A DNA stretch of 64,000 bases. Origin: Escherichia coli. Lineage in GTDB: Bacteria; Pseudomonadota; Gammaproteobacteria; Enterobacterales; Enterobacteriaceae. Under the pieces are notes generated by a model that was not told where the DNA came from, ran no database searches, and saw only the letters and a program-made list of their open reading frames with translations. The stretch lies in assembly GCF_003334785.1 (NCBI RefSeq), contig NZ_QOWV01000002.1; one strand, 5' to 3'. Position numbers and translations under genes: made by a program. Within the stretch, counting starts at the first letter, position 1. Every line of letters begins with the position of its first letter. Of this stretch, positions 2,582-47,546 are shown one piece after another.

Positions 2582-4521
2582 TGCCAGAAATTGGTAACGG
2601 ACTGCTGTGCCTGGCGCTGGGAATTGCGCTGCTGCTGTCCGTGTATCCGCTATGGGGCGTGGCGCGCGGAGATGCGCGCATGATGGCGTCTTCCCGCTTG
2701 TTTGCCTGGCTGCTGTTTATGTCTGTGGCTGGCGCATTTCTGGTGCTGGTCAATGCTTTCGTGGTCAACGACTTCACCGTCACCTATGTTGCCAGCAACT
2801 CCAATACCCAGCTTCCGGTGTGGTATCGCGTGGCGGCTACCTGGGGCGCGCATGAAGGCTCGCTACTGCTGTGGGTGCTGCTGATGAGCGGCTGGACCTT
2901 TGCGGTGGCGATTTTTAGTCAGCGTATTCCGCTGGATATTGTGGCCCGTGTACTGGCGATAATGGGGATGGTCAGTGTCGGCTTTTTGCTGTTCATTCTC
3001 TTTACCTCTAACCCGTTCTCTCGCACGTTGCCGAACTTCCCGATTGAAGGTCGCGATCTTAACCCGCTATTGCAGGATCCGGGGCTGATCTTCCATCCGC
3101 CTCTGCTTTATATGGGGTACGTGGGTTTCTCGGTGGCGTTTGCTTTTGCCATTGCTTCTTTGCTGAGCGGGCGTCTGGACAGCACTTATGCGCGTTTTAC
3201 TCGTCCGTGGACGCTGGCAGCGTGGATCTTCCTGACGCTCGGCATCGTGCTCGGTTCCGCATGGGCCTATTACGAACTCGGCTGGGGTGGCTGGTGGTTC
3301 TGGGATCCGGTAGAAAACGCCTCGTTTATGCCGTGGCTGGTGGGGACTGCGCTGATGCACTCACTGGCGGTCACTGAACAACGCGCCAGCTTCAAAGCGT
3401 GGACATTACTGCTGGCAATCAGTGCCTTCTCGTTGTGTCTGTTGGGGACTTTCCTCGTGCGTTCCGGCGTGCTGGTATCGGTACACGCGTTTGCGTCTGA
3501 TCCGGCGCGCGGTATGTTTATCCTCGCCTTTATGGTGCTGGTGATTGGCGGTTCGCTGCTGCTGTTTGCCGCGCGTGGACACAAAGTTCGCTCACGCGTA
3601 AACAATGCGCTGTGGTCGCGGGAATCTTTGCTGTTAGCGAACAATGTTTTGCTGGTCGCTGCGATGCTGGTGGTGTTGCTGGGGACGCTGCTGCCGTTGG
3701 TGCATAAGCAACTGGGACTGGGCAGTATTTCGATTGGCGAACCGTTCTTCAACACCATGTTTACCTGGCTGATGGTGCCGTTTGCGCTACTGCTTGGTGT
3801 CGGTCCTCTGGTGCGCTGGGGGCGGGATCGCCCGCGTAAGATCCGCAATTTATTGATTATCGCCTTCATCTCTACGCTGGTGCTGTCGCTGCTGTTGCCG
3901 TGGCTGTTCGAAAGCAAAGTTGTGGCGATGACGGTGCTCGGCCTGGCAATGGCCTGCTGGATTGCGGTGCTGGCAATTGCGGAAGCTGCGCTACGTATTT
4001 CACGCGGCACGAAAACCACCTTCAGTTATTGGGGGATGGTGGCGGCTCACCTTGGGCTGGCAGTGACAATTGTTGGCATTGCCTTTAGCCAGAACTATAG
4101 CGTTGAGCGTGATGTGCGCATGAAGTCCGGCGATAGCGTCGATATTCATGAATATCGCTTCACCTTCCGTGATGTCAAAGAGGTGACTGGCCCGAACTGG
4201 CGTGGCGGTGTGGCGACTATCGGCGTAACGCGCGATGGCAAGCCGGAAACGGTGCTGTATGCGGAAAAACGTTATTACAACACTGCCGGGTCGATGATGA
4301 CCGAAGCGGCAATTGACGGCGGCATCACGCGTGACCTGTACGCGGCCCTCGGTGAAGAGCTGGAAAACGGCGCGTGGGCCGTGCGTCTTTACTACAAACC
4401 ATTTGTTCGCTGGATTTGGGCGGGCGGGCTGATGATGGCGTTGGGCGGACTGCTGTGTCTGTTTGATCCTCGCTATCGTAAGCGCGTGAGTCCGCAAAAA
4501 ACTGCGCCGGAGGCCGTATGA
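2578..4521 (+). CDS. ccmF: Cytochrome c-type biogenesis protein CcmF (heme lyase component)
   Basis: 647-aa polytopic membrane [23 protein letters not shown]...; ATGA overlap with ccmE. Confidence 0.95.
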
Positions 4522-6982: not shown

Positions 6983-7301
6983 AGTAGTCTCCTGAGGTTT
7001 TATTAGAATCATTATGTTTGAGCGTAGCGTTGGTAACGCTACCAGGCGCGTGAATGTTACCCCATTTTATGTATGGACATGTAGTGAAAACTACAACCTT
7101 GTCGTTCGCTTTGGCATCATTTTCATTATAAAGACGGAATTTTGCATCAGCTTCTCATCAAGAAAAACAACTAAAAAATCAATCACAATACTTGTGCATT
7201 TCTTTAAACAGTTTTTAAAAACTGACTCCGGGTATGGAGCTATGGGTATTTTCTGTACCCAATGCTTTTAACAGCAATTAATTTCATAGGATGAAAGCTC
7301 A

Positions 7302-34872: not shown

Positions 34873-36564
34873 ATGAAAACGCTGCTGATTATTGACGCTA
34901 ATCTCGGTCAGGCACGCGCCTATATGGCGAAGACCCTGCTGGGCGCGGCGGCGCGAAAAGCAAAACTGGAAATCATCGACAATCCGAACGACGCTGAAAT
35001 GGCGATTGTTCTCGGTGATTCCATCCCGAACGACAGCGCGCTGAACGGTAAAAATGTCTGGCTGGGCGATATTTCCCGGGCAGTTGCGCACCCTGAGCTG
35101 TTCCTGAGTGAAGCCAAAGGCCATGCGAAACCTTACACTGCGCCGGTCGCTGCGACAGCACCAGTTGCCGCCAGCGGTCCGAAACGCGTAGTTGCGGTGA
35201 CTGCTTGCCCGACTGGCGTAGCACACACCTTTATGGCGGCTGAAGCCATTGAAACCGAAGCGAAAAAACGTGGCTGGTGGGTGAAAGTTGAAACCCGTGG
35301 TTCTGTTGGCGCGGGTAATGCAATCACTCCCGAAGAAGTCGCAGCAGCGGATCTGGTGATTGTGGCGGCAGATATCGAAGTGGATCTGGCGAAATTTGCT
35401 GGTAAACCGATGTATCGTACCTCTACCGGTCTGGCGCTGAAGAAAACCGCGCAGGAACTGGATAAAGCGGTTGCTGAAGCAACGCCGTATGAACCGGCGG
35501 GCAAAGCTCAAACGGCGACCACTGAAAGTAAGAAAGAGAGTGCAGGCGCATACCGTCACTTGCTGACGGGCGTTTCTTACATGCTGCCGATGGTCGTTGC
35601 AGGTGGTCTGTGTATCGCGCTTTCTTTTGCTTTTGGTATCGAAGCGTTTAAAGAGCCGGGTACGTTGGCTGCGGCGCTGATGCAGATTGGTGGTGGTTCA
35701 GCCTTTGCGCTGATGGTGCCGGTACTGGCAGGTTATATTGCCTTTTCCATTGCCGATCGTCCGGGCCTCACTCCGGGTCTGATTGGCGGTATGCTGGCGG
35801 TCAGCACCGGTTCTGGCTTCATTGGTGGTATTATTGCGGGCTTCCTGGCTGGTTACATTGCGAAGTTAATCAGTACGCAATTGAAACTGCCACAGAGTAT
35901 GGAGGCGCTGAAACCGATCCTGATCATTCCGCTAATTTCCAGTCTGGTGGTCGGTCTGGCGATGATCTACCTGATCGGTAAACCAGTTGCTGGCATTCTC
36001 GAAGGGCTGACTCACTGGCTGCAGACCATGGGGACTGCGAATGCGGTTCTGCTGGGGGCGATCCTCGGTGGCATGATGTGTACTGACATGGGCGGTCCGG
36101 TAAACAAAGCAGCGTACGCATTCGGTGTGGGTCTGCTGAGTACTCAAACCTATGGCCCGATGGCGGCGATTATGGCGGCAGGTATGGTGCCACCGCTGGC
36201 AATGGGTCTGGCAACAATGGTGGCGCGTCGCAAATTCGACAAAGCGCAGCAGGAAGGTGGCAAAGCCGCTCTGGTATTGGGACTGTGCTTCATTTCGGAA
36301 GGTGCAATTCCGTTTGCTGCTCGTGATCCGATGCGTGTGCTGCCGTGCTGTATCGTGGGTGGGGCGCTGACTGGCGCAATCTCAATGGCGATTGGTGCGA
36401 AACTGATGGCACCGCACGGTGGTCTGTTTGTTCTGCTGATCCCTGGCGCTATTACGCCGGTATTGGGTTACCTGGTAGCAATTATTGCCGGTACGCTGGT
36501 GGCGGGTTTGGCCTATGCCTTCCTGAAACGTCCGGAAGTGGACGCAGTAGCGAAAGCAGCGTAA
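34873..36564 (+). CDS. fruA: Fructose PTS EIIB'BC component FruA
   Basis: 563 aa; IIB domain with CPTGVAHT motif plus polytopic IIC domain. Confidence 0.95.
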   Translation: MKTLLIIDANLGQARAYMAKTLLGAAARKAKLEIIDNPNDAEMAIVLGDSIPNDSALNGKNVWLGDISRAVAHPELFLSEAKGHAKPYTAPVAATAPVAASGPKRVVAVTACPTGVAHTFMAAEAIETEAKKRGWWVKVETRGSVGAGNAITPEEVAAADLVIVAADIEVDLAKFAGKPMYRTSTGLALKKTAQELDKAVAEATPYEPAGKAQTATTESKKESAGAYRHLLTGVSYMLPMVVAGGLCIALSFAFGIEAFKEPGTLAAALMQIGGGSAFALMVPVLAGYIAFSIADRPGLTPGLIGGMLAVSTGSGFIGGIIAGFLAGYIAKLISTQLKLPQSMEALKPILIIPLISSLVVGLAMIYLIGKPVAGILEGLTHWLQTMGTANAVLLGAILGGMMCTDMGGPVNKAAYAFGVGLLSTQTYGPMAAIMAAGMVPPLAMGLATMVARRKFDKAQQEGGKAALVLGLCFISEGAIPFAARDPMRVLPCCIVGGALTGAISMAIGAKLMAPHGGLFVLLIPGAITPVLGYLVAIIAGTLVAGLAYAFLKRPEVDAVAKAA

Positions 36565-36574
36565 TAAAAGGTGT

Positions 36575-36605
36575 GTTACAGGGCAGAAATTTCCTGTCCT
36601 GTAAC
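36575..36605 (+). terminator. Hairpin downstream of fruA (weak T-tract)
   Basis: gttacagggcag...ctgtcctgtaac, roughly 11-bp imperfect stem; followed by attt only. Confidence 0.35.
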
Positions 36606-36986
36606 ATTTGATGAGCGCAAAGAGAATGACCGGTTTGTGAATGTAATTTTATGAATTTAAATGGTTTTATCTTTCAGTAGAAACTTCAAACGTTCATCAA
36701 ACACTCAGGTTATTTCCTCAAGGGCAGATTATTTTCTGCCCTTTTTTATTGTTCTGTTCTGTGCATCCCGTCACAAATTCCTCGCTTTTGTAATTCAGGC
36801 ATTTAATCGCATTTTGTGAGCCTGCTCAAATCTGCCCATTTTGCCTCTCTGGCGGTAATTTACTTTACGTAAAACATGCATACTATGAGCACATGTTTAA
36901 ATATGAACACATGTTTAAACCGTCTTTGCAGTATCTATATTCTTGTGGATTGACAGGGTTGGTAATTTTTTACCAGAGGACGTGCT

Positions 36987-37928
36987 ATGCGCGAAAAGGA
37001 TTATGTCGTAATTATAGGTTCGGCGAATATTGATGTCGCCGGATATTCACATGAATCATTAAATTATGCGGATTCAAATCCAGGTAAAATAAAATTTACG
37101 CCTGGTGGAGTAGGGCGCAATATTGCACAAAACCTGGCGTTGCTGGGTAACAAAGCCTGGCTACTGAGCGCCGTAGGCAGTGATTTTTATGGTCAATCGC
37201 TGCTAACGCAAACCAATCAATCTGGCGTTTATGTCGATAAATGCCTGATTGTGCCGGGAGAAAATACGTCGAGTTATTTATCATTACTCGATAATACCGG
37301 TGAAATGCTGGTTGCTATAAATGACATGAATATTAGCAACGCTATTACAGCTGAATATCTCGCACAGCACGGTGAATTTATTCAGAGGGCAAAGGTCATT
37401 GTCGCGGACTGTAATATCAGTGAAGAGGCACTGGCATGGATTCTGGATAATGCCGCCAACGTACCCGTATTTGTCGATCCGGTTTCGGCATGGAAATGTG
37501 TCAAAGTGCGCGACCGTCTAAATCAGATCCACACTCTCAAGCCAAACCGCCTTGAAGCGGAAACCCTGAGTGGGATTGCGCTGTCAGGGCGTGAAGATGT
37601 GGCAAAAGTTGCTGCCTGGTTCCATCAACATGGCCTGAACCGACTGGTATTGAGCATGGGCGGCGACGGCGTTTATTACAGCGATATCAGCGGTGAAAGT
37701 GGCTGGTCTGCGCCGATCAAAACCAATGTTATTAATGTTACCGGAGCGGGCGATGCCATGATGGCGGGACTTGCTTCGTGTTGGGTAGACGGAATGCCGT
37801 TTGCCGAATCTGTTCGTTTCGCACAGGGATGTTCGTCAATGGCGCTCTCCTGTGAATACACCAATAACCCCGATTTATCGATTGCCAACGTTATATCGTT
37901 AGTGGAGAACGCAGAATGTCTGAATTAA
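36987..37928 (+). CDS. psuK: Pseudouridine kinase PsuK (YeiC), PfkB family
   Basis: 313 aa, MREKDYVVIIGSANIDVAG...GGVGRNIAQNLALLG... Confidence 0.93.
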   Translation: MREKDYVVIIGSANIDVAGYSHESLNYADSNPGKIKFTPGGVGRNIAQNLALLGNKAWLLSAVGSDFYGQSLLTQTNQSGVYVDKCLIVPGENTSSYLSLLDNTGEMLVAINDMNISNAITAEYLAQHGEFIQRAKVIVADCNISEEALAWILDNAANVPVFVDPVSAWKCVKVRDRLNQIHTLKPNRLEAETLSGIALSGREDVAKVAAWFHQHGLNRLVLSMGGDGVYYSDISGESGWSAPIKTNVINVTGAGDAMMAGLASCWVDGMPFAESVRFAQGCSSMALSCEYTNNPDLSIANVISLVENAECLN

Positions 37929-38854
37929 AAATTTCCCCTGAATTATTACAAATTTCCCCGGAAGTGCAGGACGCTTTAAAAAACAAAAAACCGGTTGTGG
38001 CGCTGGAATCGACCATTATTTCTCACGGGATGCCGTTCCCACAAAATGCCCAGACCGCAATTGAAGTTGAAGAAACTATTCGTAAACAGGGCGCTGTACC
38101 TGCCACGATCGCCATTATTGGCGGCGTGATGAAAGTGGGGTTAAGCAAAGAAGAAATTGAATTACTGGGTCGTGAAGGGCATAACGTGACCAAAGTTAGT
38201 CGTCGCGATTTACCTTTTGTTGTTGCCGCCGGAAAAAATGGCGCAACCACTGTGGCTTCAACGATGATTATTGCGGCGCTTGCCGGAATTAAAGTATTTG
38301 CCACCGGGGGAATTGGTGGTGTGCATCGCGGGGCGGAACATACCTTCGATATTTCTGCCGATTTGCAAGAACTGGCAAATACTAATGTCACCGTTGTTTG
38401 TGCCGGGGCGAAATCTATTCTCGATTTAGGATTAACCACTGAGTATTTAGAAACCTTCGGTGTGCCGTTAATTGGCTATCAGACTAAAGCGCTGCCTGCG
38501 TTTTTCTGCCGCACCAGCCCGTTTGACGTCAGCATTCGTCTCGACAGCGCCAGCGAAATTGCCCGTGCAATGGCGGTGAAATGGCAAAGCGGTCTGAACG
38601 GTGGCCTCGTGGTAGCGAACCCGATCCCGGAACAGTTTGCTATGCCGGAACACACTATCAATGCGGCGATCGATCAGGCGGTAGCTGAAGCTGAAGCTCA
38701 GGGAGTCATTGGTAAAGAAAGTACGCCATTCCTGCTGGCGCGCGTTGCTGAACTGACCGGCGGTGACAGCCTGAAATCCAACATCCAGCTGGTGTTCAAC
38801 AACGCCATTCTGGCGAGCGAAATTGCCAAAGAATATCAGCGTCTCGCGGGTTAA
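37916..38854 (+). CDS. psuG: Pseudouridine-5'-phosphate glycosidase PsuG (YeiN)
   Basis: 312 aa, MSELKISPELLQISPEVQDALKNKKPVVALESTIISHGMP...; 13-nt overlap with psuK. Confidence 0.93.
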   Translation: MSELKISPELLQISPEVQDALKNKKPVVALESTIISHGMPFPQNAQTAIEVEETIRKQGAVPATIAIIGGVMKVGLSKEEIELLGREGHNVTKVSRRDLPFVVAAGKNGATTVASTMIIAALAGIKVFATGGIGGVHRGAEHTFDISADLQELANTNVTVVCAGAKSILDLGLTTEYLETFGVPLIGYQTKALPAFFCRTSPFDVSIRLDSASEIARAMAVKWQSGLNGGLVVANPIPEQFAMPEHTINAAIDQAVAEAEAQGVIGKESTPFLLARVAELTGGDSLKSNIQLVFNNAILASEIAKEYQRLAG

Positions 38855-38947
38855 TTTCTGACGGGCAGAAAGCCGTCGCCCGTACTCATCAAGCATACCA
38901 AAACCTGGCGCTGACGCCGGGTTTACCGGCATGAAGGGAAAATCATT

Positions 38948-40198
38948 ATGGATATAATGAGAAGTGTTGTGGGGATGGTGGTGTTACTGGCAATAGCATT
39001 TCTGTTGTCAGTGAATAAAAAGAGCATCAGTTTGCGCACGGTTGGAGCCGCACTGCTGCTGCAAATCGCTATTGGTGGCATCATGCTCTACTTCCCACCG
39101 GGAAAATGGGCAGTAGAACAGGCGGCATTAGGCGTTCATAAAGTGATGTCTTACAGTGATGCCGGTAGCGCCTTCATTTTTGGTTCGCTGGTTGGGCCGA
39201 AAATGGATGTCCTGTTTGACGGTGCGGGTTTTATCTTCGCCTTTCGCGTACTTCCGGCGATTATTTTCGTTACTGCGCTCATCAGTCTGCTGTACTACAT
39301 TGGCGTGATGGGGCTGCTGATTCGCATCCTTGGCAGCATTTTCCAGAAAGCCCTCAACATCAGCAAAATCGAATCTTTTGTTGCGGTTACTACTATTTTC
39401 CTCGGGCAAAATGAGATCCCGGCGATCGTTAAACCGTTTATCGATCGCATGAATCGCAACGAGTTGTTTACCGCAATTTGTAGCGGGATGGCGTCCATTG
39501 CTGGTTCGATGATGATTGGTTATGCCGGAATGGGCGTACCAATTGACTACCTGTTAGCGGCATCGCTGATGGCGATCCCTGGCGGGATTTTGTTTGCACG
39601 TATTCTTAGCCCGGCAACCGAGCCTTCGCAGGTCACATTTGAAAATCTGTCGTTCAGCGAAACGCCGCCAAAAAGCTTTATCGAAGCGGCGGCGAGCGGT
39701 GCGATGACCGGGCTAAAAATCGCCGCTGGTGTGGCGACGGTGGTAATGGCGTTTGTCGCAATTATTGCGCTGATCAACGGCATTATCGGCGGAATTGGCG
39801 GCTGGTTTGGTTTCGCCAATGCCTCTCTGGAAAGTATTTTTGGCTATGTGCTGGCACCGCTGGCGTGGATCATGGGTGTGGACTGGAGTGATGCCAATCT
39901 TGCGGGTAGCCTGATTGGGCAGAAACTGGCGATTAACGAATTCGTCGCTTACCTGAGTTTCTCCCCATACCTGCAAACGGGCGGCACGCTGGAAGTGAAA
40001 ACCATTGCGATTATCTCCTTTGCGCTTTGTGGTTTTGCTAACTTTGGTTCTATCGGTGTTGTCGTTGGCGCATTTTCGGCTATTTCGCCAAAACGCGCGC
40101 CGGAAATCGCCCAGCTTGGTTTACGGGCGCTGGCAGCAGCAACGCTTTCCAACCTGATGAGTGCGACTATTGCCGGGTTCTTTATTGGTCTGGCGTAA
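38948..40198 (+). CDS. psuT: NupC-family nucleoside transporter PsuT (YeiM)
   Basis: 416 aa, close paralog of the nupX product at 42138-43388. Confidence 0.92.
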   Translation: MDIMRSVVGMVVLLAIAFLLSVNKKSISLRTVGAALLLQIAIGGIMLYFPPGKWAVEQAALGVHKVMSYSDAGSAFIFGSLVGPKMDVLFDGAGFIFAFRVLPAIIFVTALISLLYYIGVMGLLIRILGSIFQKALNISKIESFVAVTTIFLGQNEIPAIVKPFIDRMNRNELFTAICSGMASIAGSMMIGYAGMGVPIDYLLAASLMAIPGGILFARILSPATEPSQVTFENLSFSETPPKSFIEAAASGAMTGLKIAAGVATVVMAFVAIIALINGIIGGIGGWFGFANASLESIFGYVLAPLAWIMGVDWSDANLAGSLIGQKLAINEFVAYLSFSPYLQTGGTLEVKTIAIISFALCGFANFGSIGVVVGAFSAISPKRAPEIAQLGLRALAAATLSNLMSATIAGFFIGLA

Positions 40199-40207
40199 TG
40201 CTCGATT

Positions 40208-40246
40208 TGTAGACCGGATAAAACGTATTAAGCGTTGCATCCGGCA
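40208..40246. repeat. REP element between psuT and yeiL
   Basis: gtagaccggataaaacgtattaagcgttgcatccggcaa. Confidence 0.7.
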
Positions 40247-40268
40247 ATCGCGCTATTGAAAATAATTT

Positions 40269-40928
40269 TTACTGCATCATCCCGGAGAATTTATTCTCCG
40301 GGTCCATCTCCAGCGCCAGTCCTGACAACTGCTTTCTGTTTTTAATGAGATATCCTTTCTTGCTTTTAATTAATAAACCGTCGTGAATGAACTGCGCGAG
40401 AACATATAAAAGATGTCGATAAGAAACGCCTAAATACTCTGCCGCTTGCGTATGCTTTTCGTGATAAAGATCACCTTCCTGCGAGAGTAATATAAATGCT
40501 GCCAGGCGATTCACTAACGGAAATGATTGATTCTGAGTTAAAGAAACAATATTACGATAATTTTTATGACTTAAGGTGACGCAGAGTTTTCGTAAAAATA
40601 GCGTGTCGTTTAATAACAGCGGACGGTAATGTTTCATAGGGAGCGCAAGGCACCAACACTCTTCAATAGCCTGCACCGCACGCGGTTCATGGTCTTTATC
40701 GATTAACTCAATCTCGCCAATAAAACAGGGGGCGGCAAAGAAATCGATCAGCGACACGCGACCATTAGCTAGCGTGGCGTAAAGCCTGGCGCGGCCTCGC
40801 GTCAGGTAAAACAGCCAGGACGGCTGTTGCCCTTCCTGCACAATGTAGTCACGCGCTAAAAAATGAAACAGCCGCGTATCGGCTGAAACATCCGTTAAAA
40901 AGCAATCCTTAAACGCGGATTCACTCAT
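40269..40928 (-). CDS. yeiL: Crp/Fnr-family transcriptional regulator YeiL
   Basis: 219 aa from the ATG at 40928 ([11 protein letters not shown]...); cNMP-binding-like domain plus C-terminal HTH; track ORF starts 13 codons upstream. Confidence 0.88.
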
Positions 40929-41096
40929 CAATTGCTGCTTAAGATCATTATTGTGGATTTCTTTCACGATGTTTATCCGCTATGAGATTTCTCATATTTA
41001 GCATACGTACGCTGTTGTTAAGATTCAATCATCGGCCCGGTCGAATTTTCTTTGCTGTAGAAAAAATAACGCAACTGGAAACAGAGGAAATAAACA

Positions 41097-42038
41097 ATGG
41101 AAAAGAGAAAAATTATTCTGGATTGTGATCCGGGTCATGATGATGCTATTGCTATAATGATGGCGGCGAAACATCCGGCAATAGATTTATTAGGCATCAC
41201 TATTGTAGCGGGTAATCAGACGCTTGATAAAACATTAATTAATGGCCTGAATGTTTGCCAGAAACTGGAGATTAATGTTCCGGTTTATGCGGGGATGCCG
41301 CAGCCCATTATGCGTCAACAAATCGTTGCCGATAATATTCACGGTGAAACCGGACTGGATGGCCCGGTATTCGAGCCGCTGACCCGCCAGGCAGAAAGCA
41401 CTCATGCGGTGAAATATATCATTGATACCCTGATGGCAAGCGATGGCGATATCACTCTGGTGCCGGTTGGTCCGCTTTCAAATATCGCGGTGGCAATGCG
41501 TATGCAACCCGCGATCCTGCCCAAAATCCGTGAAATTGTGCTAATGGGCGGCGCTTACGGTACAGGCAACTTCACGCCATCTGCCGAGTTCAACATCTTT
41601 GCCGACCCGGAAGCCGCACGCGTAGTGTTCACCTCCGGCGTTCCATTAGTGATGATGGGCCTCGATCTCACCAACCAGACCGTTTGCACCCCGGACGTGA
41701 TTGCTCGGATGGAAAGGGCAGGCGGCCCCGCCGGAGAGCTGTTCAGCGACATCATGAACTTCACTCTCAAAACGCAGTTCGAAAACTACGGCCTTGCTGG
41801 CGGCCCGGTGCACGACGCCACCTGCATCGGTTATCTGATTAACCCTGATGGCATTAAAACCCAGGAGATGTACGTCGAAGTGGACGTCAACAGTGGCCCT
41901 TGCTATGGGCGTACCGTCTGCGACGAGCTGGGCGTTCTTGGCAAGCCCGCCAATACCAAAGTCGGCATCACTATTGATACAGACTGGTTCTGGGGATTAG
42001 TCGAAGAGTGCGTGCGCGGCTACATCAAAACCCATTAA
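41097..42038 (+). CDS. rihB: Pyrimidine-specific ribonucleoside hydrolase RihB (YeiK)
   Basis: 313 aa with IU-NH family N-terminal motif [11 protein letters not shown]. Confidence 0.95.
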
Positions 42039-42137
42039 GTGTTGATAACAAGCCGGGCCGGTATCGCAAGATGCAGGCCTGGCTATTTCTGATGGGCAGA
42101 AAGCCGTCGCCCAATATGACATGAAGAGATAATCACT

Positions 42138-43388
42138 ATGGATGTCATGAGAAGTGTTCTGGGAATGGTGGTATTGCTGACGATTGCGTTTTTACTGTCA
42201 GTAAACAAGAAGAAGATCAGCCTGCGTACCGTTGGCGCGGCGTTAGTGTTACAGGTCGTGATTGGCGGCATTATGCTTTGGTTACCGCCAGGGCGTTGGG
42301 TCGCTGAAAAAGTCGCTTTTGGCGTGCATAAAGTGATGGCGTACAGCGACGCGGGTAGCGCATTTATCTTCGGTTCTCTGGTCGGACCGAAAATGGATAC
42401 CTTATTTGATGGTGCAGGATTTATCTTTGGTTTCAGGGTGTTACCGGCAATTATCTTCGTCACCGCGCTGGTGAGTATTCTCTACTACATCGGTGTGATG
42501 GGGATTTTAATTCGAATTCTCGGCGGTATCTTCCAGAAAGCATTAAATATCAGCAAGATCGAGTCATTCGTCGCGGTCACCACCATTTTCCTCGGGCAAA
42601 ACGAAATTCCGGCAATCGTCAAACCCTTTATCGATCGTCTGAATCGCAATGAATTATTTACAGCGATTTGTAGTGGCATGGCCTCGATTGCTGGTTCGAC
42701 AATGATTGGTTACGCCGCACTGGGCGTGCCTGTGGAATATCTGCTGGCGGCATCATTAATGGCGATCCCTGGCGGGATCTTGTTTGCCCGCCTGTTAAGC
42801 CCGGCAACGGAATCTTCGCAGGTTTCCTTTAATAACCTCTCTTTCACCGAAACACCGCCAAAAAGCATTATTGAAGCCGCTGCGACAGGGGCAATGACCG
42901 GGCTGAAAATCGCCGCAGGTGTGGCAACAGTGGTGATGGCATTTGTTGCAATAATTGCGTTGATTAACGGTATTATCGGCGGCGTTGGTGGCTGGTTTGG
43001 TTTTGAACATGCCTCGCTGGAGTCCATTTTAGGTTACCTGCTGGCTCCACTGGCGTGGGTGATGGGTGTGGACTGGAGTGATGCGAATCTTGCCGGGAGT
43101 TTGATTGGACAGAAACTGGCAATAAATGAATTTGTCGCTTATCTCAATTTCTCACCCTATCTGCAAACGGCTGGCACTCTCGATGCTAAAACTGTGGCGA
43201 TTATTTCCTTCGCGTTGTGCGGTTTCGCTAACTTTGGTTCTATCGGGGTGGTGGTGGGGGCGTTTTCTGCGGTTGCGCCACACCGTGCGCCGGAAATCGC
43301 CCAGCTTGGTTTACGGGCGCTGGCGGCGGCGACGCTTTCCAACTTGATGAGTGCGACCATTGCCGGGTTCTTTATTGGTTTAGCTTGA
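42138..43388 (+). CDS. nupX: NupC-family nucleoside permease NupX (YeiJ)
   Basis: 416 aa, paralog of PsuT. Confidence 0.92.
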   Translation: MDVMRSVLGMVVLLTIAFLLSVNKKKISLRTVGAALVLQVVIGGIMLWLPPGRWVAEKVAFGVHKVMAYSDAGSAFIFGSLVGPKMDTLFDGAGFIFGFRVLPAIIFVTALVSILYYIGVMGILIRILGGIFQKALNISKIESFVAVTTIFLGQNEIPAIVKPFIDRLNRNELFTAICSGMASIAGSTMIGYAALGVPVEYLLAASLMAIPGGILFARLLSPATESSQVSFNNLSFTETPPKSIIEAAATGAMTGLKIAAGVATVVMAFVAIIALINGIIGGVGGWFGFEHASLESILGYLLAPLAWVMGVDWSDANLAGSLIGQKLAINEFVAYLNFSPYLQTAGTLDAKTVAIISFALCGFANFGSIGVVVGAFSAVAPHRAPEIAQLGLRALAAATLSNLMSATIAGFFIGLA

Positions 43389-43395
43389 GTGTCAT

Positions 43396-43488
43396 TGCCT
43401 GATGCGCAAGCTTATCAGGCCTACATTTACTTGCTGAAATTGCCTGATTTGTAGGCCGGATAAGACGCGTTAAGCGTCGCATCCGGCA
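43396..43488. repeat. BIME: two inverted REP elements downstream of nupX and yeiI
   Basis: gcctgatgcgcaagcttatcaggcctac and gtaggccggataagacgcgttaagcgtcgcatccggca. Confidence 0.8.
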
Positions 43489-43494
43489 ACATTG

Positions 43495-44583
43495 TTACAC
43501 CATTGGCACTAATGAAAGCGCGTTATCGGCAGACAGGGTAGGGTTGTTTAAGCTGCCGCTGGCGCGCGAAATTGCCGCGCAGGCTACCGCAAAACGGGCG
43601 CTGTCGCGGAAACTGTATCCTTCAAGAAAGCTATATACCAGGCCCGCCATAAAACCATCGTCAGCACCAAAACTGTCTACTGTCGTATGCGCTGGCGCGG
43701 TCAGCAAAAATTGTTCTCCATCCTTTTCGCTGCAATAAACTGACTCATCGGGCAAATAAACAAACAGTTGCTGAACACCTTGCTGATGCAATGCATTCAC
43801 TGCGGTATTACGGTCAGCATCGCTGGTGATCGCCTGTCCCCATAAAATTTCCAGCTCCGGTAAAGTGGGTTTCAGGGTGTGAATATGCACCAGCCAGTGT
43901 TTGATTTTGCCCGCTTTGAATTCTGAAACGGTATCGACAAACACCGGGATTTCATCAGCGAGGGTAAAGACCCATTCCAGCGCCTCGGCTGTCAGGTTGC
44001 AATCAGCCAGTACCACGCCCGCATGACGAAGTAAATCGCGCGACCCGTTCAGTAGTTGCGGTGTCAACTGTTCCAGCAGATGGGTATCGTTAATCGCCAG
44101 CACGGTTTGATCGTCTCGATTGGCAATTGCCAGATACGTCGATGTGCTTTGACCATGCAAACGAACGCAGCCGGAGACATTCACGCCGGCACGGCGCGTT
44201 TCTTCCAGGAGCATTTCGCCATAAAAGTCATCGCCAATCACTGAAAGCAAATGGACGTCACGGCCTAACAGCGCCAGATTGTGGGCGATGTTGCGTCCCA
44301 CGCCGCCCGCTGAGCAATGAATTGTACCGGGATGAGAAGCCGATTGCGGGTAACGGATATCCGCCATCCCGCGAATATCCATATTGATTGTCCCCACCAC
44401 TACGCAGTATTCCTGCTCGGTGAGAATGTAACCTTTGCCTTTAATCCGGCCTTTGCGCATTAAATCCATAATATGCGCCGCAACGCGCGAACGGCTGATT
44501 TGCAGCATGTCCGCAATTTCGTTCTGCTGAATCAGCGGGTTACGCCGTAAAATTGCAAGGATCTCCTTTTCCCGGTTATTCAT
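43495..44583 (-). CDS. yeiI: HTH-domain-fused PfkB-family kinase YeiI (substrate unknown)
   Basis: 362 aa; N-terminal winged-helix-like segment (MNNREKEILAILRRNPLIQQNEIADMLQISRSRVAAHIMDL), then a PfkB kinase domain with GGVGRNIAHNLALLG, paralogous to PsuK. Confidence 0.9.
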   Translation of the reverse strand: MNNREKEILAILRRNPLIQQNEIADMLQISRSRVAAHIMDLMRKGRIKGKGYILTEQEYCVVVGTINMDIRGMADIRYPQSASHPGTIHCSAGGVGRNIAHNLALLGRDVHLLSVIGDDFYGEMLLEETRRAGVNVSGCVRLHGQSTSTYLAIANRDDQTVLAINDTHLLEQLTPQLLNGSRDLLRHAGVVLADCNLTAEALEWVFTLADEIPVFVDTVSEFKAGKIKHWLVHIHTLKPTLPELEILWGQAITSDADRNTAVNALHQQGVQQLFVYLPDESVYCSEKDGEQFLLTAPAHTTVDSFGADDGFMAGLVYSFLEGYSFRDSARFAVACAAISRASGSLNNPTLSADNALSLVPMV

Positions 44584-44585
44584 CT

Positions 44586-45443
44586 TCAGGCTACCGCTTT
44601 TTCAGTTTGTTGCGCTTTCAGCCAGGCGATCTCTTCTGCCCAGATATCCGGGTTGATGGTTTCGAGGATCAGCGGAATGCCGTCGAAACGGTCGTCCTGC
44701 ATGATCCAGCGGAACGCATCATGACCGATATTGCCTTCACCGAGGCTATGATGGCGGTCAACGCGGCTGCCAAAGGTGCTTTTCGCATCGTTAAGGTGCA
44801 TCCCGCGCAGATACTTAAAGCCGACAGTACGGGCAAAATCCGCGAATGTTTTCTCGCATTCGGCTGGAGTACGCAAATCATACCCGGCAGCGAAAGCATG
44901 GCAGGTATCAATGCAGACGCCGACGCGGGATTTATCTTCCACGCCGTCGATAATCGCCGCGAGATGTTCGAATTTAAACCCTAAGTTACTGCCCTGACCG
45001 GCGGTGTTTTCTATCACCGCTGTCACACCTTGAGTTTTATCCAGCGCAATGTTGATGGATTCGGCAATACGCGCAAGGCAATCCTCTTCTGAAATCTGCA
45101 TCAGATGGCTGCCAGGGTGGAAGTTGAGCAAAGAAAGCCCCAGCTGTTCGCAACGCTGCATTTCATCTATAAAGGCATCGCGCGATTTTTCCAGAGCTTC
45201 AGTGACCGGATGTCCGAGGTTAATCAGATAACTGTCGTGGGGAAGAATTTGCGCCGATGTGTAGTGATATTTTTCACAGGCGGCTTTGAATTCATCGATG
45301 GTTTGCGTCGTGAGCGGTGCGGCACGCCACTGACGTTGGTTTTTGGTGAACAAGGCAAACGCGGTTGCGTCGATTTCGGCGGCGCGAATTGCGGCATTTG
45401 CCAGACCGCCAGCAGCACTAACGTGCGCTCCAATGTATTTCAT
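44586..45443 (-). CDS. nfo: Endonuclease IV (AP endonuclease)
   Basis: 285 aa, [39 protein letters not shown]... Confidence 0.95.
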
Positions 45444-45516
45444 GCGAGGACTCCTGTTAAACCCGCTGGAGGAAAACGGTAATGATAGCGGGTTAACAGG
45501 AGCAAGATGTAGTGGT

Positions 45517-46566
45517 TTATGCGATGACGCTTTGAATCACATAGTTAATCGCACCACCACCAACAATCAGCCAGGCAAACAGTACCAGTGCCATCAGCAG
45601 AGGTTTCGCCCCAGCTTTTTTCAGCGCGCTGACGTGAGTGGTCAGACCCAGCGCCGCCATCGCCATTGCCAGCAGGAAGGTATCCAGCGTTACCAGCATG
45701 TTCACCACGCTCTGCGGTAACAGGTGGAACGAGTTAAAGATGGCAACTACGATGAACAAGATGGCAAACCACGGAATAGTGATTTTGCTTTTCTCGCCGC
45801 TGTTCGCCCCAGACAGCTGTTTAACACGCGCCGCCAGCAGGATGAGGAACGGAGCCAGCATCATCACGCGCAGCATTTTGGAAATAACTGCTGCGTTTTC
45901 CGCATCCGGGCTGATGGCATGACCTGCCGCCACCACCTGCGCCACTTCGTGCACAGTAGAACCAATGTAGATACCGAAAGTTTCCGGACTAAACCATTGA
46001 GACATCAGCGGATATATCGCCGGGTAGAGGAAAATCGCGACGGTCCCGAAGATAACAACGGTTGCAACAGCCACGGTTACTTTACTGGCTTCCGCTTTCA
46101 CTACCGGCTCAGTCGCCAGTACCGCGGCAGCACCACAGATACTGCTACCGGCACCGATCAACCAGCTGGTGTGCTTATCCAGACCAAACACTTTCTGCCC
46201 CAGGAAGCAAGCCAGCAGGAAGGTACTGGACAGCGTCAACACGTCAATGATGATCCCACTGATACCGACATCGGCAATTTGCGAGAACGTCAGACGGAAG
46301 CCATAAAGAATGATACCCAGACGTAATAAATATTGCTTGGCAAACAGCACACCACCGTCACAGCTTTTCCAGATGTGCGGATAGATGGTGTTGCCTAAAA
46401 CCATCCCCAACAAGATTGCGAGGGTGAGGGCACTAAACCCGGCACCCGCAACCGCGGGAATGGAACCACCCCACAGGGCGACCCCGGTGATAACTGCACT
46501 CAGGGCTAACCCCGGAATAAAATGCCACAGTGTACGATGTTGTTTCTGTAAGGTGATATTCGTCAT
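45517..46566 (-). CDS. yeiH: UPF0324 inner membrane protein YeiH
   Basis: 349-aa polytopic membrane protein; divergent from the LysR-type regulator gene yeiE. Confidence 0.9.
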
Positions 46567-46622
46567 AACCCTCTCCTTTAACCGGGCATAAGGTTACGAC
46601 TAACTGGTTTAAAAATAAAATT

Positions 46623-46644
46623 GATTATATATTTATAATTAATC
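46623..46644. promoter_or_regulatory. Candidate LysR-type (T-N11-A-like) box in the yeiH-yeiE divergent region
   Basis: GATTA-N12-TAATC inverted repeat about 20 nt upstream of the yeiE ATG; assignment to YeiE is an inference from position only. Confidence 0.3.
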
Positions 46645-46664
46645 TTTATAAGTGGTAAGCGACT

Positions 46665-47546
46665 ATGCACATCACCCTCCGGCAGTTGGAAGTTTTTGCA
46701 GAAGTATTGAAAAGTGGATCAACCACCCAGGCGTCGGTGATGCTGGCGTTGTCGCAATCAGCAGTGAGCGCAGCCTTGACCGACCTGGAAGGGCAGCTTG
46801 GCGTGCAACTGTTTGATCGCGTGGGGAAAAGACTGGTTGTTAATGAACACGGGCGGCTGCTCTATCCGCGTGCGTTGGCATTGCTTGAACAGGCGGTTGA
46901 AATCGAACAACTGTTTCGCGAAGACAACGGCGCGATTCGTATCTATGCCAGTAGTACCATCGGTAACTACATTCTGCCTGCAGTTATCGCCCGTTATCGC
47001 CATGATTATCCGCAGTTGCCGATTGAACTTAGCGTTGGGAATAGCCAGGACGTGATGCAAGCGGTGCTGGATTTCCGCGTTGATATTGGCTTTATTGAAG
47101 GACCGTGCCACAGCACTGAAATCATTTCTGAACCGTGGCTGGAAGACGAGCTGGTGGTTTTCGCCGCGCCGACTTCGCCGTTGGCCCGTGGTCCGGTCAC
47201 CTTAGAACAGCTGGCCGCTGCGCCGTGGATCCTGCGTGAACGCGGTTCCGGCACGCGGGAGATTGTCGATTATCTGTTGCTGTCACATTTACCGAAGTTT
47301 GAGATGGCGATGGAATTAGGTAACTCCGAGGCAATCAAACATGCGGTGCGTCATGGGTTGGGAATTAGTTGCCTGTCGCGACGTGTGATTGAAGATCAAT
47401 TGCAGGCAGGCACATTAAGTGAAGTTGCGGTCCCTCTGCCGCGCCTGATGCGTACGTTGTGGCGTATACATCATCGGCAAAAACACCTTTCCAACGCGCT
47501 ACGGCGCTTTCTGGACTATTGCGATCCCGCAAATGTGCCGCGTTAA
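46665..47546 (+). CDS. yeiE: LysR-family transcriptional regulator YeiE
   Basis: 293 aa, N-terminal [45 protein letters not shown]. Confidence 0.92.

Follow-up and report, generated by a model that had tools for sequence, protein, structure and literature searches.

The 38-nt identity between the 3' ends of psuT and nupX in Escherichia coli K-12 is very probably a footprint of ectopic gene conversion

The genes psuT and nupX of E. coli K-12 share a perfectly identical run of 38 nt near their 3' ends, and this run is very probably the footprint left when the two paralogs recombined homologously at their 3' ends, that is, of ectopic gene conversion, and not a functional element. The K-12-type nupX is a mosaic, in which gene positions 1-1149 are ordinary nupX sequence and the remainder, which includes the stop codon and about 16 nt beyond it, is of the type found in psuT haplotypes B and C, which are described below. 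A preliminary description of this DNA had offered gene conversion as one of two explanations of the run and, as to the process, it is supported. Four points of it have to be revised, namely, that the tract is longer than 38 nt, starting at about 1150-1179 and ending in the flank about 16 nt past the stop codon, that the match is to the psuT haplotype of other strains and not to K-12's own psuT, that few differences were removed within the run itself, and that the exchange is recurrent and goes in both directions across Escherichia.

The region studied in the window (the whole stretch of DNA analysed, 64,000 nt) matches E. coli K-12 derivatives at 100% identity, and the gene order read along the + strand is psuK, psuG, psuT, yeiL, rihB, nupX, and yeiI, of which yeiL and yeiI are on the opposite strand (Table 1). 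psuT and nupX are direct repeats that lie 3.2 kb apart and are 21% diverged. Each of them is 1251 nt long and codes for 416 amino acids, and they are 88.2% identical in amino acids and 78.8% identical in nucleotides, which agrees with the equal length and the 85-90% amino acid identity that had been estimated by eye. Both have the domains of the CNT (NupC/NupG-type concentrative nucleoside transporter) family, and PF01773, PF07670, and PF07662 (Nucleos_tra2_N, Gate, and Nucleos_tra2_C) are precomputed on the identical NupX protein and on its relatives. It has been shown that NupX transports uridine and cytidine weakly, and uptake by PsuT was not detected (PMC11241209). The nupX-yeiI intergenic region of most strains is 55 nt long and has one REP-like palindrome, compared to the longer K-12 type with two that is listed in the table.

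Table 1. Positions in the window of the genes, the 38-nt run, the psuT-type segment, and the flanking features
Feature	Position	Strand	Basis
psuT (yeiM) CDS, CNT/NupC-family nucleoside transporter	38948-40198	+	ORF and RefSeq annotation of identical K-12 records
38-nt run, psuT copy (gene positions 1150-1187, codons 384-396)	40097-40134	+	exact match, codon table
psuT 3' end with ~55 nt of flank, including a REP-like palindrome	40097-40253	+	allele alignments
Sub-threshold naRNA4/REP match in psuT flank	40212-40299		Rfam scan
yeiL	40269-40967	-	
rihB	41097-42038	+	
nupX (yeiJ) CDS, paralogous CNT/NupC-family transporter	42138-43388	+	ORF, annotation, and Pfam
5' breakpoint of the psuT-type segment in nupX	within 43286-43316		
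38-nt run, nupX copy	43287-43324	+	exact match
psuT-type segment in K-12-type nupX	43287-43404	+	allele identities, max-chi2, shared stop and flank
nupX TGA stop (psuT-type segment continues ~16 nt beyond, gtgtcattgcc...)	43386-43388		
nupX-yeiI intergenic region, K-12 type, 107 nt, two REP-like palindromes	43389-43494	+	flank alignment
Sub-threshold naRNA4/REP match in nupX-yeiI intergenic region	43454-43501		Rfam scan
yeiI	43495-44583	-	

The two genes also resemble each other in their leaders, where a block of 27 nt is identical at 26 positions (38857-38883 and 42088-42114). This block contains a hairpin (38861-38883 and 42092-42114), (A)(C/U)GGGC - loop AGnnnGC(C/G)GUC - GCCC(G/A)(U), which is conserved ahead of the two genes across several genera. 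In an alignment of 14 sequences 92% of the cells were paired, three pairs were changed on both sides, and the covariation score was reached by none of 500 shuffles. A covariance model of the hairpin matched the leaders of psuT and nupX only, including that of the nupX in L103, which was not a training sequence and scored 33.6 bits. When 79 sources with other CNT-family loci were searched with this model no further copies were found, and the hairpin had no match in Rfam when 38800-43700 was scanned at E<=1. We regard it as a candidate cis-regulatory RNA.

The 38-mer, GCGCCGGAAATCGCCCAGCTTGGTTTACGGGCGCTGGC, has exactly two copies in the window, at the two positions that had been described and both on the + strand, and shuffled sequences are expected to have none. 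No other identical run between psuT and nupX is as long, the runner-up being 23 nt. The identity of the two genes was 0.91 at gene positions 1151-1250 compared to 0.77 at positions 1-100, and these values confirm the earlier figures of about 91% and 77% for the two ends. It was also correct that the synonymous sites are well diverged, as only 51% of the 349 conserved degenerate codons use the same codon in both genes, and the codon table bore out the presence of the rare codons CTT, TTA, and CGG in both copies of the run, which comprises 12 consecutive same-codon positions. When K-12 was considered alone, a permutation test for at least 12 consecutive same-codon positions gave p=0.048, and a scan statistic for the best 30-codon window (25 of 30 the same, codons 384-414) gave p=0.014. 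Thus, in K-12 alone the run barely exceeds chance and the signal is marginal (p 0.05-0.014). Part of the excess of identity at the 3' end arises because the C-terminal amino acids are conserved, the final 33 residues of PsuT and NupX being identical. Even for orthologues from other genera the identity to nupX is about 83% at the 3' end, compared to about 77% over the rest of the gene.

The evidence for an exchange comes from the 3' ends of 33 E. coli alleles, 17 of psuT and 16 of nupX, that were read base by base. The psuT alleles within E. coli diverge by up to 10.7% and three 3' haplotypes were found among those sampled. Haplotype A, which is present in K-12, BL21, and others, reads GCAGCAGCA...CTGGCGTAA and is followed by the flank tgctcgatttgtagaccgg. 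Haplotype B, which is present in L001, L003, and L007, reads GCGGCGGCG...AGC...ACC...TTAGCTTGA and is followed by the flank gtttcattgccggatg. Haplotype C, in L005 and L006, is A-like to about position 1220 and B-like afterwards. Most of the nupX alleles have an end, here called N1, that reads ...CGC...ACA..TCT...TTAGCGTAG and continues into the flank tgcgcaatttatgagccgg. The K-12-type end of nupX, here called N2, is like that of psuT haplotype B, and has CGG, ACG, TCC, GCG, and TTAGCTTGA and then gtgtcattgcc. K-12-type nupX shares with psuT haplotypes B and C the stop codon TGA and the post-stop sequence gt(g/t)tcattgcc, and the other nupX alleles have TAG and tgcgcaattta.

When the last 99 coding nucleotides of K-12 nupX were compared to these alleles it was found that 97 were the same as in L001 psuT, which is of haplotype B, whereas 93 and 89 were the same as in the N1 nupX alleles of L005 and L004, respectively. 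Over the first 1149 nt, K-12 nupX was 96.4% identical to L005 nupX and 95.5% to L004 nupX and only about 78% identical to any psuT. The 3' segment of K-12 nupX thus groups with psuT and not with the nupX alleles, and the 38-nt run is a stretch of elevated identity, bounded by a breakpoint, in genes that are 78.8% identical. A max-chi2 test was done with K-12 nupX as the child and with L005 nupX and L001 psuT as the parents, which were picked after the alignment was inspected, and it placed the breakpoint at gene positions 1149-1179, with the informative sites divided 224:11 to its left and 1:7 to its right (permutation p=2e-4). When the K-12-type nupX end together with its flank was used as the query against all E. 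coli genomes, it was present in full in 1267 of them. In many of the genomes without this end the top match was psuT, over query positions 1-167, and such best psuT matches reached 16 nt past the stop codon and came ahead of the nupX of those same genomes. Among the 33 alleles, K-12's own psuT is of haplotype A and not of the putative donor type B or C, and therefore the identity within K-12 stops at GCA/GCG (position 1188), leaving 38 nt. The reason why the identity breaks after 38 nt in K-12 is, then, that the nupX segment matches the psuT haplotype of another strain, and the two K-12 genes coincide perfectly only at 1150-1187 because all these haplotypes agree there.

Other strains carry other tracts. 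The genome L011 is filed as E. coli but belongs to a divergent Escherichia; its two paralogs are identical over 137 nt (1078-1214), its NupX has the PsuT residues ISPK in place of VAPH, and the max-chi2 breakpoint is at 1023-1034 (p=2e-4). The nupX of L096 has the N2 end only from 1197 to the stop codon, with a breakpoint at 1194-1197; at 1179 it still has CGC, and a further psuT-type micro-patch, of three sites, is found at 1119-1125. Exchange in the opposite direction is seen in psuT of strain 536, which has N1 nupX-type bases at 1188-1203, and GCGGCGGCG of psuT haplotype B is also nupX-like. The tracts in K-12, L096, L011, and strain 536 are thus lineage-specific and have differing end points, and since the patches vary and go in both directions across strains it follows that the exchange is recurrent and bidirectional and that its state is polymorphic. 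It had been proposed that a tract that is identical within the pair of a genome and different between lineages would indicate conversion, and by this test the answer is conversion. As for the K-12 run, CGG is present at 1179 in every sampled Escherichia psuT, including that of E. albertii, and CGC is present in 14 of the 16 nupX alleles, and the direction that appears to be favoured at this site is from psuT to nupX. The N2 end is also found in the divergent L011 lineage and therefore the K-12 event may be old or introgressed. It could have happened either inside the K-12 lineage or in another lineage from which it was imported by allelic recombination. L101, a metagenome contig, has an ordinary E. 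coli-type locus with an indel.

The frequency of the run in the population shows the same polymorphic state. A stringent search found the exact 38-mer in 3359 of 5426 complete E. coli genomes at 4444 places, with a maximum of two per genome, and therefore about 1085 genomes (about 20%) have it exact in both genes; about 2274 have one exact copy and about 2067 have none. Seven sites in the run are polymorphic among the 33 E. coli alleles, all of them synonymous (1152, 1155, 1164, and 1177 in psuT and 1152, 1167, and 1179 in nupX). Of the 16 sampled genomes with both paralogs, 13 have a pair that differs at one to four of the run sites, the difference being four sites in BL21, and zero differences were found only in K-12, in ETEC1717, which is identical to K-12, and in L011. 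Most of the other nupX alleles differ from psuT at merely one or two of the run sites, and being this near to psuT already they show that the K-12 exchange changed just one or two bases of the run. In other genera (psuT of Citrobacter, and nupX of Leclercia, Buttiauxella, Superficieibacter, L100, L102, and L103), four to nine of the 38 positions differ, and these differences are mostly synonymous, with several of these genes having a replacement of codon 392 from Leu to Met, Ile, or Val.

A probable mechanism is RecA-type homologous recombination between the direct repeats, which would be seeded at the longest perfectly identical stretches, for example, the 29 nt at 1150-1178 that are identical in unconverted psuT/nupX pairs. 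A length of 29 nt is about the minimal efficient processing segment for RecA-dependent recombination in E. coli. Because the last 33 amino acids are identical, an exchange at the 3' end would be tolerated and selectively silent, and the 3' end may in this way be a preferred and self-reinforcing site of exchange. The rare codons CTT, TTA, and CGG would then be common to both genes by descent or by copying and not by selection. Chi sites were considered as an explanation of the position of the breakpoint and were set aside, there being none between 36502 and 47150.

The history of the locus raises the question whether the 3' end of nupX was like that of psuT from an earlier time. In E. albertii and in three Citrobacter species psuK-psuG-psuT-yeiI is present and yeiL-rihB-nupX is absent. 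In Leclercia, Buttiauxella, L102, and L103 the arrangement is fruBKA-yeiL-rihB-nupX-nfo and the psu genes are absent, and L100 has yeiL-rihB-nupX-psuK-psuG-psuT-yeiI, where the order of the cassettes is the reverse of that in E. coli. The N1 end of the majority of nupX alleles with its flank, TTAGCGTAG and tgcgcaatttatgagccggataag..., matches the psuT end and flank of E. albertii, and the form that they share is TTAGCGTAG tgcgc(g/a)atttatgagccggataag. A tentative explanation, which we regard as possible but doubtful, is that all E. coli nupX genes are chimeric, the last 100 nt or so and the flank being the ancestral psuT end on which later exchanges were layered, and that this came about when a crossover, or a duplication and a deletion, within the transporter genes joined yeiL-rihB-nupX to psuKGT-yeiI. 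This would account for the two cassettes being separate in different genera and in the opposite order in L100, for the match of the majority nupX end and flank to E. albertii psuT, and for native nupX differing from Escherichia psuT at one to three run sites compared to four to nine in other genera. However, the similarity of the 3' end of E. coli nupX to Escherichia psuT in the coding region is only weakly above the baseline set by amino acid conservation (binomial p 0.003-0.17), and a flank adjacent to yeiI is expected under any insertion model. Moreover, the 3' end of E. coli psuT is likewise E. albertii-like, which is not predicted by a simple single-crossover (Campbell) model, and for this reason cassette insertion of the simple Campbell type was not adopted. 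The synonymous sites are saturated in comparison with all non-Escherichia nupX genes, so that the polarity cannot be set; the nupX genes of Leclercia, Buttiauxella, Superficieibacter, L100, L102, and L103, tried for polarising the nupX 3' end, were 76-79% identical to everything.

These data give a weak indication that the resemblance of the nupX 3' end to psuT dates from the joining of the cassettes. A chimeric origin complements the conversion explanation of the K-12 run and does not replace it. Somewhat less likely still, and rather speculative, is that the shared 3' end serves as a portable recombination joint by which psuK-psuG-psuT-yeiI and yeiL-rihB-nupX, as alternative cassettes for nucleoside catabolism that take up the same slot between fruA and nfo in different Enterobacteriaceae, were combined and re-ordered. 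If this were true, E. coli nupX would be a nupX::psuT chimera joined at about codon 383 and the continuing exchange would be one source of the allelic diversity of the locus, which is unusually deep.

It is improbable that there was no exchange at all and that the run reflects chance together with strong conservation of the C-terminal amino acids and shared codon ancestry. The permutation p of only 0.048 for the length of the run is in keeping with such an origin, as are the 33 identical residues, which lift the baseline to about 83% even in comparison with other genera, and the small number of run sites, one or two, at which native nupX differs from psuT. What it does not explain is that from 1150 on K-12 nupX is nearer to the psuT of other strains (97/99) than to nupX alleles (89-93/99), that the stop codon and the post-stop flank are shared as well, that the breakpoints have p=2e-4, and that the 137-nt tract in L011 brings non-synonymous PsuT states into NupX.

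The other explanation in the preliminary description, that the run is an RNA structure, an sRNA or RNase target, or a DNA site embedded in both genes whose synonymous sites are under purifying selection, is very unlikely; the run is indeed the longest identical stretch between the two genes, with three rare codons retained in both and a weak inverted repeat, GCGCC...GGCGC, but it is polymorphic at seven synonymous sites among E. coli alleles, is exact in both copies in only about 20% of the genomes, and differs at four to nine of 38 positions in other genera, and this polymorphism and the missing conservation across genera largely refute it. Relative to dinucleotide shuffles the folding z was -0.44 for the run, -0.13 and +0.13 for the 71-nt contexts in the two genes, and -0.53 for the reverse strand. 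The Rfam scan of 38800-43700 at E<=1 gave no match in the run or in the genes, with sub-threshold matches to naRNA4, which is REP-derived, in the downstream flanks only; a promoter and terminator scan found no such site within the run, and a literature search on nupX and Hfq gave nothing relevant to E. coli. Neither synonymous conservation across species nor structure beyond that of shuffles nor a match to a curated family was thus found. The run is of little consequence for regulation, as there is very probably no hidden signal in it, and the rare codons require no special explanation.

With gene conversion as the preferred explanation, psuT and nupX provide a clean, population-documented case of short bidirectional conversion patches between E. 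coli paralogs that are 21% diverged. Caution is called for in read mapping, allele typing, dN/dS analysis, and phylogenetics of psuT and nupX because their 3' ends differ in history from the rest. The analysis also flags the fruA-nfo locus as one with unusually deep allelic diversity and with cassette rearrangement across Enterobacteriaceae. In a literature search, no paper was found on gene conversion between yeiJ and yeiM (nupX and psuT) and no earlier description of it.

The process itself is a previously known one, and the psuT/nupX case is ordinary ectopic gene conversion between bacterial paralogs. Its likeness to RNA elements at the 3' ends of coding sequences, such as sRNAs derived from the 3'-UTR or CDS and RNase E sites, is superficial and lies in the low synonymous divergence near the stop codon, whereas psuT and nupX lack the conservation across species, the structure signal, and the family match. 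With the concerted evolution of rRNA operons and of IS- or REP-flanked repeats it shares that repeats within a genome are homogenised by recombination, but in rRNA operons this is near-complete and is maintained across species, while in psuT and nupX the homogenisation is partial, comes in patches, and is still segregating among members of the species. Gene conversion between tufA and tufB in Salmonella and E. coli was reportedly described by Abdulkarim and Hughes in 1996. There, too, paralogous coding genes of the same genome exchange by homologous recombination and are left with tracts of identity at synonymous sites. The tuf exchange is RecA-dependent, and the tuf genes are almost identical, far apart, in inverted orientation, and homogenised over nearly the whole length, whereas the patches in psuT and nupX are short (from three sites to about 140 nt), lie mainly at the 3' end, and are polymorphic among strains. 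Ectopic conversions in bacterial multigene families are said to have been reviewed by Santoyo and Romero in 2005 and detected with GENECONV-type methods by Morris and Drouin in 2007. These are likewise short tracts between diverged paralogs, recognised by runs of identity and by phylogenetic incongruence, and they are commoner between closely spaced copies; the difference is that for psuT and nupX the evidence consists of haplotypes at the population level and not of a scan of a single genome.

It was found that psuT and nupX share a conserved hairpin in their leaders. The element TTTCTGA(C/T)GGGCAGAAAGCCGTCGCCC is common to both and is identical at 26 of 27 positions, whereas the two coding sequences are only 78% identical. 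The stem of this hairpin is (A)(C/U)GGGC/GCCC(G/A)(U) and it closes a conserved 11-nt loop, AGnnnGC(C/G)GUC. The hairpin is also present in psuT leaders of E. albertii, Citrobacter and the corresponding locus L100, and in nupX leaders of Superficieibacter, Buttiauxella, the Salmonella-labelled locus L103 and Leclercia/L100, the last in a longer form with a 12-bp stem. When 14 leader sequences were compared, pairing was found in 92% of cells and three pairs were changed on both sides, and the covariation score was reached by none of 500 shuffles. A covariance model of the hairpin matched only psuT and nupX leaders in about 1.06 Mb from 79 sources, and in addition it matched the L103 nupX leader (33.6 bits), which was not in the training set. 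No Rfam family matched the hairpin. We consider this leader hairpin a candidate cis-regulatory RNA.

The psuT leader carries a second hairpin with a trailing TTT (cctggcgctgacgccgggttt), a possible attenuator or weak terminator. It is kept in the psuT leaders of E. albertii and Citrobacter and is not found in the nupX leader of K-12.

Coordinates of the features in the window and in corresponding loci of other strains
Feature	Location	Strand	Context
Conserved leader hairpin, psuT copy	38855-38889	+	psuG-psuT intergenic, 65-93 nt upstream of ATG
Conserved leader hairpin, nupX copy	42086-42120	+	rihB-nupX intergenic, 26-52 nt upstream of ATG
Hairpin followed by TTT (cctggcgctgacgccgggttt)	38908-38928	+	psuT leader
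Additional REP-like palindrome gcctgatgcgcaagcttatcaggcctaca	~43396-43425		K-12-type nupX flank (intergenic 43389-43494)
nupX remnant region	L001 5705-5872		strain AVS0247
IS1A element	L010 3251-3948		strain 8600; in place of 3' psuG, whole psuT and yeiL, 5' rihB

The two genes belong to two alternative cassettes that occupy the fruBKA-nfo slot in different Enterobacteriaceae (L012-L015, L021, L098-L100, L102 and L103 compared with window positions 36987-44583). The psuK-psuG-psuT-yeiI cassette is found in E. albertii and Citrobacter, and Leclercia, Buttiauxella, L102 and L103 carry yeiL-rihB-nupX. E. coli has the two cassettes together, with psu first, and so does L100, with nupX first.

Within E. 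coli the psuT-nupX locus (38948-43388) is unusually diverse, as judged from loci L001-L009 and L091-L097. The nucleotide identity to K-12 falls to 89.3% for psuT alleles and to 94.7% for nupX alleles, and the most divergent psuT alleles are as distant from K-12 as is E. albertii psuT, which is 87.8-90.6% identical to that of E. coli. Over the 4.4-kb region just 391 of 5431 records were at least 99% identical to K-12, and 2580 fell in the 90-95% band. The 80-90% band held 971 records, and all five rows sampled from it (H25-H29) were of a 3.27-kb form with a nupX remnant. This remnant of about 110 nt, in which the first ~64 nt of nupX are joined to the last ~49 nt, is shared by a large set of E. 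coli genomes, and the nupX of strain 536 carries a frameshift in its annotation; therefore, nupX appears to be dispensable in some E. coli lineages. The REP-containing flanks downstream of psuT and nupX are themselves variable: the region 3' of K-12-type nupX is 107 nt long with the additional palindrome, compared to 55 nt, and in strain Ecol_517 about 130 nt are inserted 3' of psuT (L007 2273-2468).

In L011, a GTDB representative that is listed under 'E. coli SCPM-O-B-8794' and whose psuT and nupX are 93.5% and 92.5% identical to those of K-12, the paralogs share an identical 137-nt tract (7078-7214 and 10279-10415), in which four NupX residues are switched to the PsuT state. Separately, a NupC/NupG-family transporter gene on the 240-kb plasmid NZ_CP182175.1 (20696-20837, match H70) is 85.9% identical to the nupX 3' region over 142 nt. 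No Chi site (GCTGGTGG) lies within 36503-47149. The whole window has 16 Chi sites against about 2 expected, 14 of them on the + strand, and this excess and strand bias are usual for E. coli.
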